NCBI GenBank assembly: GCA_035995885.1
Contig: DASYKC010000161.1
Span: forward strand, 2,434 to 66,433
DNA length: 64,000 bases
Reading direction: 5' to 3'
Origin: Caldimonas sp.
Lineage (GTDB): Bacteria > Pseudomonadota > Gammaproteobacteria > Burkholderiales > Burkholderiaceae_C
This document shows, piece by piece, positions 12,445 to 63,919 of this stretch (its first letter is position 1; every line of letters begins with the position of its first letter). The notes beneath the pieces are model-generated. The model saw only the letters and a list, made by a program, of their open reading frames with translations. It did no database searches and was not told where the DNA came from. The position numbers and the translations under genes are program-made.

Positions 12445-13422
12445 ATGCAAGCGTGGCTCTGCGAGAACCCGACCGGCGTCGAGGCGCTGCAATGGAAGGA
12501 CCTGCCGACGCCCGAGCCGAAGGCGGGCGAGGTGCGTGTCGCGATCCGCGCCGCGAGCCTCAACTTCCCGGATCTGCTGATCGTCCAGAACAAGTACCAG
12601 ATGAAGCCGCCCCTGCCCTTCGTTCCGGGCTCGGAATACGCCGGCACGGTCGAGGCGGTGGGCGTTGGCGTCGAGCACCTCAAGGTCGGCGACGCGATCG
12701 CGGCATTCGGCGGCACCGGCGGCTTCGGCACGCACGCGGTCGTCAACGCCGCGCTCGTGATGCCGCTGCCGGCGGGATTTCCGTTCGACGACGCCGCCGC
12801 CTTCATCCTCACCTACGCAACGACCCACCACGCGCTCGTCGATCGCGCCCAGATGAAGAGCGGCGAGACGCTGCTCGTCCTCGGCGCCGCAGGCGGCGTC
12901 GGCACCGCCGCGATCCAGATCGGCAAGGTCCTCGGCGCGCGCGTCATCGCCGCTGCGTCGAGCGACGAGAAGTGCGAGCTCTGCCGTTCGATCGGCGCCG
13001 ACGCGACGATCAATTACGCCGCCGCCAACATCCGCGACGAGCTCAAGCAGCTCACCGACGGCAAGGGGCCCGACGTCGTCTACGACCCGGTCGGCGGCGA
13101 CCTCGCCGAGCCGGTGTTCCGCTCGATCGCCTGGCGCGGCCGCTACCTCGTCGTCGGCTTCGCCCAGGGCGCGATCCCGGCACTGCCGCTCAACCTCGCC
13201 CTGCTCAAGGGCGCGTCGATCGTCGGCGTCTTCTGGGGCGAGTTCGCGCGGCGCGAGCCGAAGGCGAACGCGCAGGCGCTGGCCGAGCTCGCGCGCTGGT
13301 ATGCCGAGGGCAAGGTCAAGCCGGTGATCGACCGGCGCCTGCCGATGCGCGAGCTTCGCGCGGCGTACGCGCTGATGGGCAGCCGCACCGTGCGCGGCAA
13401 GGTCGTGATGACCAACGGCTGA
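12445..13422 (+). CDS. NADPH:quinone oxidoreductase (zeta-crystallin/MDR family)
   Basis: [33 protein letters not shown]. Confidence 0.9.
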
Positions 13423-41238: not shown

Positions 41239-41898
41239 TCAGCGCTTGATATCCAGCTCGCCGTAGAGCCGCTCGACCAGGGCACGCAGGCGTTCGAGCT
41301 CGGTCTCCGCCATCGCCACCCTCGCCTTCAGCGTCGCCAGCTCGCTCACCGGCACGATCGTCTCGTCGTCGCTCGCCGCCGTGAACACGCTCAGGTCGAC
41401 TGGGCCGCCGAGGAGATGGGCCCAGCGCTGCTCGCGGGCGCCCGGGGCGCGCGGCAGCTTGAGCGCGAGCGGACCGCCCTTCTCTTGCGCGCGCGCCGCC
41501 AGCTCGTCGAGGAAGCCCTCGACCGCCGAGACGTCGGCGAAGCGATGCAGACGGTCGCTCGCCGCGCGCAGCTCCGACGCGGTCTGCGGGCCGCGCAGCA
41601 TCAGCGTCGCCAGCAAGGCGACCGACTGCGACGGCAAGCCCAGCACGCGGCCCAGGTTGTGCTCGTAGCGGGCGACGCGCGAGCCGCTCGACTCGAACGC
41701 GAGCGACAGCGACTTCAGGGCGTCGACCGCGCCCTGCACCTCGGCCTCGCTCGCCGCAAGCACCGGGTCGCGCGCCGTCTTCTGGTTGCAGCCGAGCGTG
41801 AGCGTGTTCAGCGACAGCGGATAGCTGTCGGGCACGGTCAGCGACTTCTCGACGAGCACGCCGAGCGCGCGCAATTCGAGCAACGACAGCGGCCGCAT
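41239..41898 (-). CDS. YceH/DUF480-family protein (alternative GTG at 41901)
   Basis: RALGVLVEK...PDSYPLSLN...CNQKTARDPV; LMLRGPQT; REQRWAHL. Confidence 0.85.
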   Translation of the reverse strand: MRPLSLLELRALGVLVEKSLTVPDSYPLSLNTLTLGCNQKTARDPVLAASEAEVQGAVDALKSLSLAFESSGSRVARYEHNLGRVLGLPSQSVALLATLMLRGPQTASELRAASDRLHRFADVSAVEGFLDELAARAQEKGGPLALKLPRAPGAREQRWAHLLGGPVDLSVFTAASDDETIVPVSELATLKARVAMAETELERLRALVERLYGELDIKR

Positions 41899-41996
41899 CA
41901 CGGCAAAGGGTCGCTCGCCCGGACGCCGCGCCGCGCCGAAACCGGCCGCGTCACCTCGCCGGGCAACGAACGCAGTGAGGCGCGGTCGAGCGCCAC
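41898..41996 (-). other. Intergenic 32-aa mini-ORF / repeat-like element (copy B)
   Basis: GTG overlaps the SDR TAG, and its TGA overlaps the yceH start; encodes VALDRASLRSLPGEVTRPVSARRGVRASDPLP. Confidence 0.5.
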
Positions 41997-42778
41997 TACA
42001 GCGCGAAGCCGTCGTCGGCCTGGATCACGGCGCCGTTGATGAAGTGGCTCTCGTTGGCGCAGAGCATCATCAGCACGACGTCGAGGTCGGCCGGGCTGCC
42101 GACGCGCCGGCGCGGCAGCATGTCGATCAGCTTCTTGCCCTGCTCGGTCGACCATTGCAGGTGGTTCATCTCGGTGTCGATGTAGCCCGGGCAGATCGCG
42201 TTGACGTTGATGCCGAAGCGGCCCCACTCGAGCGCCATGGCCCTGGTCATGTGGACGACCGCGGCCTTGCTCATGCAGTAGACGCCGATCTTCGGCATGA
42301 CCTTGAGGCCGGCCATCGAGGCGATGTTGACGATGCGGCCGCCGGTGAAGGTGCCCGGCGCCGCGCCCTTGGCGCGCGCGATCATCCGCTTGCCGACCTC
42401 CTGGGCGACGAAGAACGCGCCGCGCGTGTTGACGTCGAAGACGTAGTCGTAGTCGTCGGGGTCGACGTCCACGAGCGGCTGCGTCGTCGCCACGCCCGAG
42501 TTATTGACCAGGATGTCGATCGTCCCCATCTCCGTCTCGGTGTGGGCGACGGCCGAGCGGATGCTGTCGTGGTCGGTGACGTCGAGCGCAACGACATGCG
42601 CATCGCCGCCTTCGGCCTCGATCTCGGCGCGCAGGCTCTTCAGCCGCTCGACGCGCCGGCCCGCGAGCGCGACGCCGGCGCCGGCCTTGGCGAGAACGCG
42701 CGCGAACTGCGCGCCGAGACCGCCCGAGGCGCCGGTGACGAGGGCGACGCGGCCCGAGAGATCGATCTGATAGCTCAT
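41996..42778 (-). CDS. Short-chain dehydrogenase/reductase
   Basis: TGASGGLG, NNSG, NIAS, YCMSK, PGYIDT. Confidence 0.92.
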   Translation of the reverse strand: MSYQIDLSGRVALVTGASGGLGAQFARVLAKAGAGVALAGRRVERLKSLRAEIEAEGGDAHVVALDVTDHDSIRSAVAHTETEMGTIDILVNNSGVATTQPLVDVDPDDYDYVFDVNTRGAFFVAQEVGKRMIARAKGAAPGTFTGGRIVNIASMAGLKVMPKIGVYCMSKAAVVHMTRAMALEWGRFGINVNAICPGYIDTEMNHLQWSTEQGKKLIDMLPRRRVGSPADLDVVLMMLCANESHFINGAVIQADDGFAL

Positions 42779-48018: not shown

Positions 48019-48870
48019 TCAGCTCTTCACGGCGCCGGCCGTGAGGCCCGACACCATGTAGCGCTTGAAGACGTAGTAGATCGCCGCCGGCGGCAGCGCA
48101 TAGATCAGGCCGGTTGTCATCAGCAGCTCCCAGGGCGAGTCGTCGGCCGAGAGGAAGCTGCCGAGGGCGACGCCGAGCGTCGTGCTCTTGTCGTCGGAGA
48201 GGAGCAGGAAGGCGTAGAGGTACTCGTTCCAGGCGAGCAGCAGCGCATAGGTGCCGACTGCGACCAGCGACGGCAGCATCAGCGGCAGGTAGACGAGGCG
48301 AAACAGCTGCAGCGGCGTCGCGCCGTCGATTCGCGCCGCCTCGTCGAGCTCGAGCGGCAGCTTGTCGGACGCCTGCTTCAGGACCCAGATCGAGTACGGC
48401 GTCGCGATCGTCACCATCGCCAGGATGAGCGCCCACTGGCTGTTGAGAAGCCCGTAGTTGCCCATCGTCTTGTACATGGGCACGGCGAGGAACGCGGCCG
48501 GGATGAAGTAGGTGAAGAGCGCCAGGTTCATGATCGTCCTGCCGCCCCTGACGCGGAGGCGACTGATCGCGAACGCCGCCGACGTGGCGATGAAGAGCGT
48601 GATCGCGCCCACGGCAACGGCGATCAGCACCGAGTTCCACATCTGCAGCCAGAAGTGGCTGAGGTAGTGGTGCTGCTGGTGGAAGACCATCGAGAAGTTA
48701 TGCAGCGTCGGGTGCTCGGGCCAGAGCTTGCCCGAGACCGCCTGCTCCTTCGGTGAGATCGCGAACAGCACGAGGTGGTAGATCGGCAGCAGCGTCCAGA
48801 TCGCGACCGGGATGCCGATCAGGAGCAGCTTCGCCTCGGCCGACGCCTTCTTCAGCGTCATGGCGCTCAT
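48019..48870 (-). CDS. Carbohydrate ABC transporter permease (MalG-like)
   Basis: [14 protein letters not shown] motif, [17 protein letters not shown]. Confidence 0.93.
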
Positions 48871-48947
48871 GGCCGGGCGCCCGGCCGCCCCAGGCCCGGC
48901 GCCGGCCCCTCGCAAGGAAGCGACCGAAGAGAGCGTGGCGGCGTCAT
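48867..48947 (-). other. Intergenic 26-aa mini-ORF / repeat-like element (copy A)
   Basis: Bounded by ATGA at both ends; encodes [26 protein letters not shown]. Confidence 0.55.
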
Positions 48948-49834
48948 CGCGACAGGCGCTTCATCATGAAATAGACGAGCGGCAGCACGAGCGGCATGGC
49001 GCAGACGACCGTCGCCATCGACATGTCGACCTGGTCGAGACGGAGGTAGCGCAGGCCGAGCGTCGCGAGCACGTGCGTCTGGTCGGCCGGGCCGCCGCCC
49101 GTGAGCAGGTAGACGCTGTTGAAGTCGCCGAGCGTCCAGATCATCGACAGGATCGTCGACGTGAGGTAGAGCGTCTGCAGCGACGGCCAGGTGATGAACT
49201 TGAACTTCTGCCAGGTCGTCGCGCCGTCGACCGACGCCGCTTCGTACATCTCGGCGGGGATCGCCATCCGCCCGGCGACGAGGATCAGGGTCCAGAACGG
49301 CAGCGACTTCCAGATGTGGACGACGATCGCCAGGCCGAGCGCGATCGTCGGGTTGTTGAGCCAGTTCGGTCCGTCGGCGCCGGTGAGCCGGAAGATCGTC
49401 GAATTGATGACGCCCCACTCCGGGTTGAGCATGAAGCGCAGCGACAGGATCGTCGGGATCGACGGCACCGCCCACGGCAGGATGAAGAGCAGCGACAGCC
49501 ACTTGATCCAGGGCCGCGTGCGGACGAAAAACCCCGAGAGGAAGAGCGCGACCAGCATCTTGACGTTGATGCCGACGATCAGGAAGAAGAGCGTGTTGAC
49601 GACCGTGCGCGCGAACACCGGGTCGTCGACGAGCTTGACGTAGCTCGCGGGATGGCGCGCCAGCCAGAGGCCGTAGACGACCGGGTAGAGAACGAAGACC
49701 GCGAAGATCAGGACGTAAGGCGCGACCAGGACGATGCCCCACGCCTGCCACGGCGTCAGCCGGCGCCGGGTCGGACCGACCGGTGCCGACTGGCGCTCGG
49801 GCTGCCCGGCGCCTTCGAGCGCGAGCGTCGACAC
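48944..49834 (-). CDS. Carbohydrate ABC transporter permease (MalF-like)
   Basis: LPWAVPS, WKSLPF, MYEAASVDGAT EAA motif. Confidence 0.93.
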   Translation of the reverse strand: MSTLALEGAGQPERQSAPVGPTRRRLTPWQAWGIVLVAPYVLIFAVFVLYPVVYGLWLARHPASYVKLVDDPVFARTVVNTLFFLIVGINVKMLVALFLSGFFVRTRPWIKWLSLLFILPWAVPSIPTILSLRFMLNPEWGVINSTIFRLTGADGPNWLNNPTIALGLAIVVHIWKSLPFWTLILVAGRMAIPAEMYEAASVDGATTWQKFKFITWPSLQTLYLTSTILSMIWTLGDFNSVYLLTGGGPADQTHVLATLGLRYLRLDQVDMSMATVVCAMPLVLPLVYFMMKRLSR

Positions 49835-62812: not shown

Positions 62813-63919
62813 ATGAGCGCAGAAGCCTTCCTGCAGATCAAGAACCTCGTCAAGGAGTTCGACGGCCACCCCGCCGTCGACAACGTCTCGATCGACATCG
62901 CCAAGGGCGAGGTCTTCGCCCTTCTCGGCTCGTCGGGCTGCGGCAAGACGACGCTGCTGCGCATGCTCGCGGGCTTCGAGACACCGACCTCGGGAACGAT
63001 CACGCTCGACGGCCGCGACCTCGCCGGCCTGCCGCCGTACGAGCGGCCGATGAACATGATGTTCCAGAGCTACGCGCTCTTCCCCCATCTCTCGGCGTTC
63101 GACAACATCGCCTTCGGCCTGCGTCGCGACGGCCTGGCGAAGGACGAAGTCCGGGCGCGCGCCGAGGCGATGCTGAAGCTGGTGCAGCTCGCGCCGTACG
63201 CGAAGAGGAAGCCGCACCAGCTCTCGGGCGGCCAGCAGCAGCGCGTCGCCCTGGCGCGCAGCCTCGCCAAGAAGCCGCAGCTGCTCCTCCTCGACGAGCC
63301 GCTCGGCGCGCTCGACAAGAAGCTGCGCGAGGAGACGCAGATCGAGCTCGCCAACATCGTCCACGACGTCGGCGTCACCTGCGTGCTGGTCACCCACGAC
63401 CAGGAAGAGGCGATGACGATGGCGTCGCGAATCGCCGTGATGAGCGAGGGCCGCTTCCTGCAGGTCGGCGCGCCGGCCGAGATCTACGAGACGCCGGCGA
63501 CCCGCTTCGTCGCCGACTTCATCGGCAACGTCAATTTGATGGACGGCACGCTGGTCGAGGACGAGGCCGATCACGTCGTCGTCGACTGCGGCGACATCCG
63601 CCACCGCGTCGGCCACGGCATCACCGGGACGCGCGGCATGGCGGTGACGGTGGCGCTTCGGCCGGAGAAGATCCGCATCCGGCGCGACGCATTGACTTCG
63701 CCGCCCACGACCGAGCCCGCCGTCAACCGCGCCCACGGCAAGATCAAGGAGATCGCCTACTTCGGCAGCTTCACCGTCTATCACCTGCAGATGGCGAGCG
63801 GGCGCGTCCTCAAGATCAGCCAGAGCAACGTCGAGCGCCAGCCCGGCGCGCCGCTGACCTGGGGCGATGCGGCGTGGGCGACCTGGACCGATCTTTCCCA
63901 GGTGGTGCTGACGCAATGA
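62813..63919 (+). CDS. potG: Polyamine ABC transporter ATP-binding protein (PotG-like)
   Basis: GSSGCGKTT, YERPMNMMFQSYALFPH, LSGGQQQR, LDEPLGALDKKLRE; TOBE-like C-terminus. Confidence 0.82.
   Translation: MSAEAFLQIKNLVKEFDGHPAVDNVSIDIAKGEVFALLGSSGCGKTTLLRMLAGFETPTSGTITLDGRDLAGLPPYERPMNMMFQSYALFPHLSAFDNIAFGLRRDGLAKDEVRARAEAMLKLVQLAPYAKRKPHQLSGGQQQRVALARSLAKKPQLLLLDEPLGALDKKLREETQIELANIVHDVGVTCVLVTHDQEEAMTMASRIAVMSEGRFLQVGAPAEIYETPATRFVADFIGNVNLMDGTLVEDEADHVVVDCGDIRHRVGHGITGTRGMAVTVALRPEKIRIRRDALTSPPTTEPAVNRAHGKIKEIAYFGSFTVYHLQMASGRVLKISQSNVERQPGAPLTWGDAAWATWTDLSQVVLTQ

Follow-up and report, generated by a model that had tools for sequence, protein, structure and literature searches.

The window, the whole stretch of 64,000 nucleotides that was analysed, belongs to a Caldimonas sp. 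genome of 4.57 Mb (70% GC, 97% complete), hereafter G000. It shows two mini-ORFs, each located between two genes of the same direction and each containing a copy of a short repeat, which by sequence match is the Beta-proteobacterial repeat element (BRE) described by Hot et al. (2011). The features are, in order of position:

41239 to 41898, minus strand: DUF480/YceH gene (E=4e-54), downstream of mini-ORF 1; its ATG at 41898 is the start kept in relatives
41898 to 41996, minus strand: mini-ORF 1, 32 codons, with the translation VALDRASLRSLPGEVTRPVSARRGVRASDPLP*
41913 to 41981, minus strand: BRE copy 1, decayed (nhmmer E=1.4e-6 and 3.9e-6, with HMMs built without copy 1)
41961 to 41978, minus strand: SLRSLP codons of copy 1, TCA CTG CGT TCG TTG CCC
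41996 to 42778, minus strand: short-chain dehydrogenase (SDR) gene (adh_short, E=9e-57), upstream of mini-ORF 1
48019 to 48870, minus strand: ABC permease gene (BPD_transp_1), downstream of mini-ORF 2; its start lies within the right ATGA
48867 to 48943, minus strand: insertion of 77 nt, formed by BRE copy 2 (48871-48943) and a duplicated ATGA (48870-48867)
48867 to 48947, minus strand: mini-ORF 2, 26 codons, with an ATGA at each end
48915 to 48932, minus strand: SLRSLP codons of copy 2, TCT CTT CGG TCG CTT CCT, in which the covarying pair is T.G
48944 to 49834, minus strand: ABC permease gene (BPD_transp_1), upstream of mini-ORF 2; its stop lies within the left ATGA

Mini-ORF 1 opens with a GTG (41996-41994) which has one base in common with the TAG stop of the SDR gene (41998-41996; TAGTG), and closes with a TGA (41900-41898) which has one base in common with the ATG of the DUF480/YceH gene (41898-41896; TGATG). 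A sequence-only reading of this DNA had described it as touching both the SDR stop and the yceH start, and the coordinates and the translation bear this out. Two further observations of that reading hold as they were made: the two mini-ORF peptides align without gaps over 20 codons with 11 identities, and five of the six SLRSLP codons differ between them, every difference being synonymous.

BRE is a GC-rich element of about 75-90 nt, dispersed in Burkholderiales. It contains, from 5' to 3', box A (CCCCCACGC), the variable P1 hairpin, box B (CTGCCCCCCGAGGGGGCG) and a further hairpin, P3. The stem of P3 changes in sequence among copies yet remains paired, and it closes the conserved loop CTTGGGGCGGCCCGGCG. 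An ATGA is often found directly 5' of the element, and cTGAcATG(A) often at its 3' end. The consensus reads (ATGA-N)GCCCCCACGC / TCACTTCGTTCG / CTGCCCCCCGAGGGGGCG / stem arm / CTTGGGGCGGCCCGGCG / complementary arm, then often cTGAcATG, and the element shows no stop codon in any of its three sense frames. Copy 1 of the window has lost most of box A, keeps an intact P1 segment (TCACTGCGTTCG) and shows a degenerate box B (CCCGGCGAGGTGACG), loop and P3 stem; it is also matched by the covariance model, of whose training set it is a part. Both window copies are single units. Tandem arrays of two to three units, with periods of 76-88 nt, are present in other Burkholderiales genomes (L030, L100, L094, L096, L114 and L020). 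Each unit of the L114 array begins with ATGA and ends with cTGAcATGA, giving a chain of mini-ORFs in which each stop lies 1 nt before the next ATG. The covariance model also gives weak matches in the window at 12824-12903, 63081-63150 and 2593-2667, all on the plus strand (E=0.04-0.11), which may be more decayed BRE copies or chance.

G000 contains 33 copies by iterated nhmmer (E<1e-3) and 36 by the covariance model, which finds between 2 and 74 copies per genome in 24 genomes of the same genus and none in 16 other families sampled from the order. This range among congeners (G001-G024) of similar genome size suggests recent bursts or losses. An exact-pattern scan with one genome per species gives more than 120 loci across Burkholderiales genera, among them Polaromonas, Variovorax, Hydrogenophaga, Acidovorax, Ramlibacter, Rubrivivax, Burkholderia, Achromobacter and Bordetella; the pattern requires intact boxes A and B, and the cross-genus sample is therefore biased to young copies.

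The published BRE is about 90 bp long and was described from Bordetella, Polaromonas JS666, Delftia and Acidovorax; most copies are intergenic, some lie in coding sequences and some form tandem repeats, and no function was assigned to it (Hot et al., 2011; BMC Genomics 12:207, PMC3110155). Five published Bordetella sequences (supplementary List S1 of the same paper) match an HMM built from G000 copies only (E=1.7e-7 to 7e-5), and their E-values with the cross-genus HMM are as low as 1e-12. The reverse-complemented Bordetella element shows CCCCCACGCT, the P1 hairpin, CTGCCCCCC..GGGGGC, a variable stem and the loop TTGGrCGGCCCG, as the G000 copies do, and both are GC-rich, multi-copy and 75-91 bp long, mostly intergenic, with some copies in coding sequences and some in tandem. 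The P1 of Bordetella is about 20 nt long, whereas that of the short-P1 subfamily described here is 11-12 nt, and copy 1 of the window is heavily decayed relative to the published element. The covarying stem and the conserved loop are absent from the published description, and so are the mini-ORFs, except that some copies were described as overlapping ORF ends by a few bases. A literature search for functional follow-up of BRE found only Hot et al. (2011). Among the Rfam models, none reached its gathering score anywhere in the window, and canonical copies gave no hit even at E<=1.

The similarity of the mini-ORFs could have been a chance match between Ser/Leu/Arg/Pro-rich translations of GC-rich spacers, as Ser, Leu and Arg each have six codons, and Arg, Pro, Gly and Ala are frequent in translations of GC-rich DNA. 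The single-sequence fold energies of both copies are no better than those of shuffled sequences (z=-0.07 and +0.47), a measure made uninformative by the 78-80% GC of these sequences. Against chance, an HMM built from 12 other G000 copies, with the window copies left out, recovers both in a search of the whole genome (E=1.3e-8 for copy 2 and 3.9e-6 for copy 1), both align across the whole element with 38 other copies, and a canonical orthologous copy is found at the same SDR-DUF480 junction in the congener G017. These three results rule chance out and leave it with practically no probability: both mini-ORFs are copies of one repeat of about 75 nt. A six-frame translation of the whole genome contains SLRSLP 19 times, and about 15 of these occurrences belong to a single DNA repeat. 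Clear detection of the window copies was obtained only with an HMM from G000's own copies; HMMs from canonical copies of other genera alone missed them at E<=1e-3 (E=0.013 and 1.2).

BRE is inserted at both junctions of the window. The permease junction is empty in four relatives (G015, G013, G004 and G012), which show one plain ATGA, ...tcgcgATGAgcgc..., and filled in G000, which shows ...tcgcgATGA, then 73 nt, then ATGAgcgc...; the insertion duplicated the ATGA stop/start overlap, and the ATGA alone. The SDR-DUF480 junction is filled in three genomes (G000, G017 and G008) and empty in 14 congeners, where unrelated spacers range from a 6-nt overlap up to 40 nt. BRE is well preserved at this junction in G017 and G008 and decayed in G000, the copy being an older insertion common to the three congeners. 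The ORF that bridges both genes is kept in all three filled junctions despite differing start and stop contexts: its boundaries are TAGTG and TGATG in G000 and TGATG and TTGA in G008, and in G017 it starts at a GTG 5 nt past the TGA and stops 13 nt ahead of the GTG start, beside GGAGGG.

Among the BRE copies, direct repeats that the 5' flank shares with the 3' end, counted from a length of 7 nt and reaching 11 nt, were observed 12 times against 2.9 expected. At six loci (C188:51950-52030, C86, C218, L036, L048 and L117) the sequence directly 5' of BRE recurs at its 3' end; the recurring sequences are 7-11 nt long, for example GGAGGAT, GACATGGA and GACTGAGATGA, and the inner arm of P3 is complementary to them. 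The P3 arm matches the target in some copies (GGAGGAT in C188, CCGGCGATC in C102 and GACTGAGATGA in C218). At C188, where the inner arm is complementary to the repeated flank, the predicted hairpin would sequester the Shine-Dalgarno sequence of the downstream gene. The idea that P3 arms are copied from the target as a general rule fails at the permease copy: its empty site shows both arms to have been part of the insert. Two further G000 copies lie at gene starts: that at C54:1383-1458 is located between a terminator-like T-run with GAGG and a gene starting MATIPLTRRGAEKLREEL, greA-like by its N-terminus only, and that at C1:9223-9299 separates a TGA stop from a gene that begins with MAKEIKDLVVGLDIGT, ftsA-like by its N-terminus only. 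At both the Shine-Dalgarno sequence would now serve the mini-ORF, and the ATG of the gene comes after TGAc.

Conservation is clear at the level of the hairpins. P3 was analysed for covariation in an alignment of 40 sequences, both window copies included, with nine modelled stem pairs and a tenth pair. All nine modelled pairs, and the tenth, vary on both sides, and 86.9% of the paired cells are complementary versus 68% in shuffles (none of 500 shuffles as high) and 48% or less in slid controls. The P3 stem ranges from 5 to 12 bp and is almost purely Watson-Crick in 129 copies, which show no wobble bias of the sense strand (13 G.T versus 21 A.C); with no wobble signature of a sense RNA, wobble pairs do not distinguish a structure at the RNA level from one at the DNA level. 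P1 differs by 7-9 nt between BRE subfamilies in its SLRSL segment, and its length ranges from 11 to 20 nt. Within the 46 short-P1 copies, variation of the 42-nt core is confined to five positions: the third base of the Ser codon, the second and third of the Leu codon, and the first and third of the Arg codon. They lie in the motif A-C-TTC-G-T, where an outer pair and, inside it, an invariant C-G pair enclose a triloop; in copy 1 of the window these are the covarying pair A41976/T41970, the invariant pair C41975/G41971 and the triloop 41974-41972. The outer pair is A-T in 25 copies, G-C in seven, C-G in six and T-T in eight, with no mixed combination, a pattern that independent synonymous drift would not be expected to produce.

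These positions decide how the shared peptide is read. The sequence-only reading had taken the synonymous differences as selection on the peptide or on codon choice, and in its favour 54% of the changes in the 42-nt core are synonymous in the SLRSLP frame, versus 32% expected and 16-17% in the other frames. RSLRSL is also retained in 28 of the 46 short-P1 copies, and the C-runs read in this frame encode two Pro-Pro motifs. Pro-Pro motifs can slow ribosomes, and a peptide M..PPRSLRSLPPEGA.. selected for itself could be, for example, a regulatory or ribosome-stalling micropeptide. However, the synonymous excess rests entirely on the five hairpin positions: without them the SLRSLP frame shows 9 synonymous versus 28 non-synonymous changes and has no advantage over the other frames, and the two third positions that vary do so together, as a base pair without mixed combinations. 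The 45 bridging mini-ORFs described below read boxes A and B in all three frames, box A as PPR, APT or PHA, and box B as AAPRGG in 12, CPPRGR in 10 and LPPEGA in 23. Antisense copies located between co-directional genes are bridged in 9 of 15 cases, including all four in G000, by unrelated peptides. As all three frames are used and antisense copies are bridged too, the peptide is not what is kept. It would also have to tolerate the 7-9 nt by which P1 differs between subfamilies and a C-terminal half that is hypervariable because it is encoded by the covarying P3 stem, and the orthologous copies of G000, G017 and G008 have little in common besides SLRSLP. The conservation of one peptide in one frame across copies, expected of a leader or stalling peptide, was not found among the copies compared. 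A selected peptide is largely refuted by the hairpin-bound excess, the frame mixing and the antisense bridging, and we consider it very improbable. The 'synonymous' variation of SLRSLP is best read as compensatory change in a small hairpin, and the shared SLRSLP probably as the mere translation of conserved element DNA in one usable frame. The sequence-only reading had named conservation at the DNA or hairpin level with no frame preference as an outcome that would count against it, and this outcome applies to its peptide claim but not to its claim of a relay between genes.

The relay claim concerns how the open frame is placed between genes. An ORF was taken as bridging when, opened at the upstream stop, it ends at -4 to +15 nt relative to a possible start codon of the ORF downstream, with crude gene calls (long ORFs, high GC3). 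Of 198 copies with boxes A and B, most are in sense orientation between or beside co-directional genes and about 30% are antisense. Sixty-one sense copies have a gene on both sides, and in 55 of them a start codon lies past the upstream stop and ahead of box A. Any in-frame ATG, GTG or TTG was counted as a downstream start, a liberal definition that inflates the counts, the BRE-free control still reaching 18% and the +2 frame 33%; under it 45 of the 55 copies (82%) are bridged in the frame of their start codon, versus three in the +1 and 18 in the +2 frame, and 10 are not bridged. In most cases the left-boundary start codon and the right-boundary stop share one phase. The offset from stop to downstream start is mainly -1 (ATGA) in 22 copies, +4 in 12, and +2 and +7 in four each. 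Bridging ORFs range from 75 to 105 nt across the P1 length classes, so the phase is compensated. Within G000, 13 of 19 spacers with BRE are bridged (68%; six are not) versus 68 of 374 BRE-free spacers of 55-125 nt (18%; Fisher p=5e-6). The sequence-only reading had proposed a family of translated intergenic relay elements; its structural half stands, as the mini-ORFs touch both flanking genes well beyond chance, including in the count of copies that overlap or abut both neighbours, and the half that invoked selection on peptide or codons is not supported. The phase enrichment gives the relay idea statistical support. If every insertion duplicates ATGA and brings an element of one fixed length class, the phase could partly follow from the insertion itself, without selection.

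We propose, with a probability of about 0.7, that both mini-ORFs are BRE copies inserted at gene junctions, in which the fold and an open frame linking the genes are kept, and not the peptide, and that the frame probably serves as a relay by re-initiation. Ribosomes ending the upstream gene would restart on the mini-ORF, or others would start at its own duplicated start; they would read through the BRE hairpins, unfolding them, then terminate at the downstream start codon, or a few bases short of it, and begin again at that codon. Such a relay would make the insertion cheap, and copies that break the phase would be lost.

BRE could instead be a structured RNA or DNA element whose role lies outside translation: it might, for example, stabilise mRNA, bind a protein, give rise to an sRNA or be no more than selfish DNA. 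Its mini-ORFs would then have no translational effect, and the bridging ORFs would be a passive by-product of the ATGA duplication and of a stop-free, GC-rich body. The strong covariation of the stem around a conserved loop agrees with this, as do the near-pure Watson-Crick stems without G.U bias, which fit a palindrome at the DNA level, the occurrence of both orientations and of tandem arrays, the discovery of BRE within the transcribed sRNA bprJ of B. pertussis (PMC3110155), and the frequency of open frames in DNA of 70% GC. It accounts poorly for a phase that is held across ORFs of 75-105 nt and across P1 length classes, for the far lower bridging of shifted frames and BRE-free spacers, and for orthologous copies that still bridge after their boundaries have changed. 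On balance we regard it as unlikely, although a structural role and a relay are compatible with each other.

The BRE family and the layout resembling that of the mycobacterial MIRUs were known before; the value of the finding is the explanation and the order-wide evidence for the maintenance of phase. A false lead is removed, since a shared peptide with synonymous differences only, which resembled coding selection, is better read as compensatory change of a hairpin within a repeat. The copies add evidence that a little-studied element appears to behave as MIRUs do, on stop/start junctions and with the bridging frame in phase across a bacterial order. BRE mini-ORFs and the adjacent shifted start codons are easily mis-called in annotation, and the finding bears on how operons tolerate insertions and raises the question of what moves BRE.

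REP and REPIN sequences share with BRE that they are short, GC-rich, hairpin-forming, multi-copy intergenic repeats, often located within operons. In BRE, however, it is the stem that varies and the loop that is conserved, the opposite of REP, and unlike REP and REPIN it shows target duplication at the junction. The RAYT domain Y1_Tnp (PF01797) has no match in the 97%-complete G000 and matches in 6 of 14 control genomes, and no inverted BRE doublets are present in the copy lists. Membership in the REP/REPIN-RAYT system was rejected on these two results and on the stem sequence, which is not conserved. MITEs are expected to show terminal inverted repeats together with a target-site duplication. 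Duplication of the target is seen here in the ATGA and in the longer direct repeats, and on inspection of the consensus the two BRE ends do not look like inverted repeats of each other.

Rickettsia palindromic elements (RPE) are said to have been described by Ogata and colleagues in 2000 as able to sit in frame inside protein-coding genes. BRE is likewise a palindromic repeat able to lie within a gene: one G000 copy outside the window (contig C102:21686-21765) is in frame within a UvrA-like ORF of more than 1829 aa. This copy adds about 26 residues (APTLPAVAAPRGGAAGLGAARRPA...) immediately ahead of SIADVLDLTVAEA, a conserved segment, has the 9-nt direct repeat CCGGCGATC on both sides and resembles in-gene RPE. 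The RPE belong to an unrelated lineage, and BRE lies mostly between genes.

Mycobacterial MIRUs show a relay-type layout at gene junctions, according to the summary of Supply et al. (1997) in PMC12548453. By analogy with that summary, the layout and its presumed logic appear alike in BRE, which shows the duplicated ATGA and the enriched bridging. The junction is duplicated on insertion, as seen in the ATGA of the permease site and in the excess of direct repeats, and the repeat ORF overlaps or abuts the upstream stop and the downstream start. MIRUs belong to a different phylum and a sequence relationship is not expected, the likeness being one of layout only; unlike them, BRE shows a covarying hairpin with a conserved loop and is bridged in both orientations and in any frame. 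Going beyond the relay by re-initiation, we offer tentatively, and as less probable than not by some distance, that BRE may move actively in Burkholderiales and home to gene junctions, and that its conserved loop, closed by a stem free to vary, would be the recognition site of a mobilising or binding factor. It may be 'translation-transparent', with no stop in any frame and with start and stop-restart signals of its own. RAYT is absent, some copies have direct repeats of 4-11 nt at their flanks, and in some the inner stem arm can pair with the downstream ribosome-binding site. BRE and MIRUs may then be two cases of a convergent class of selfish repeats that exploit translational coupling.
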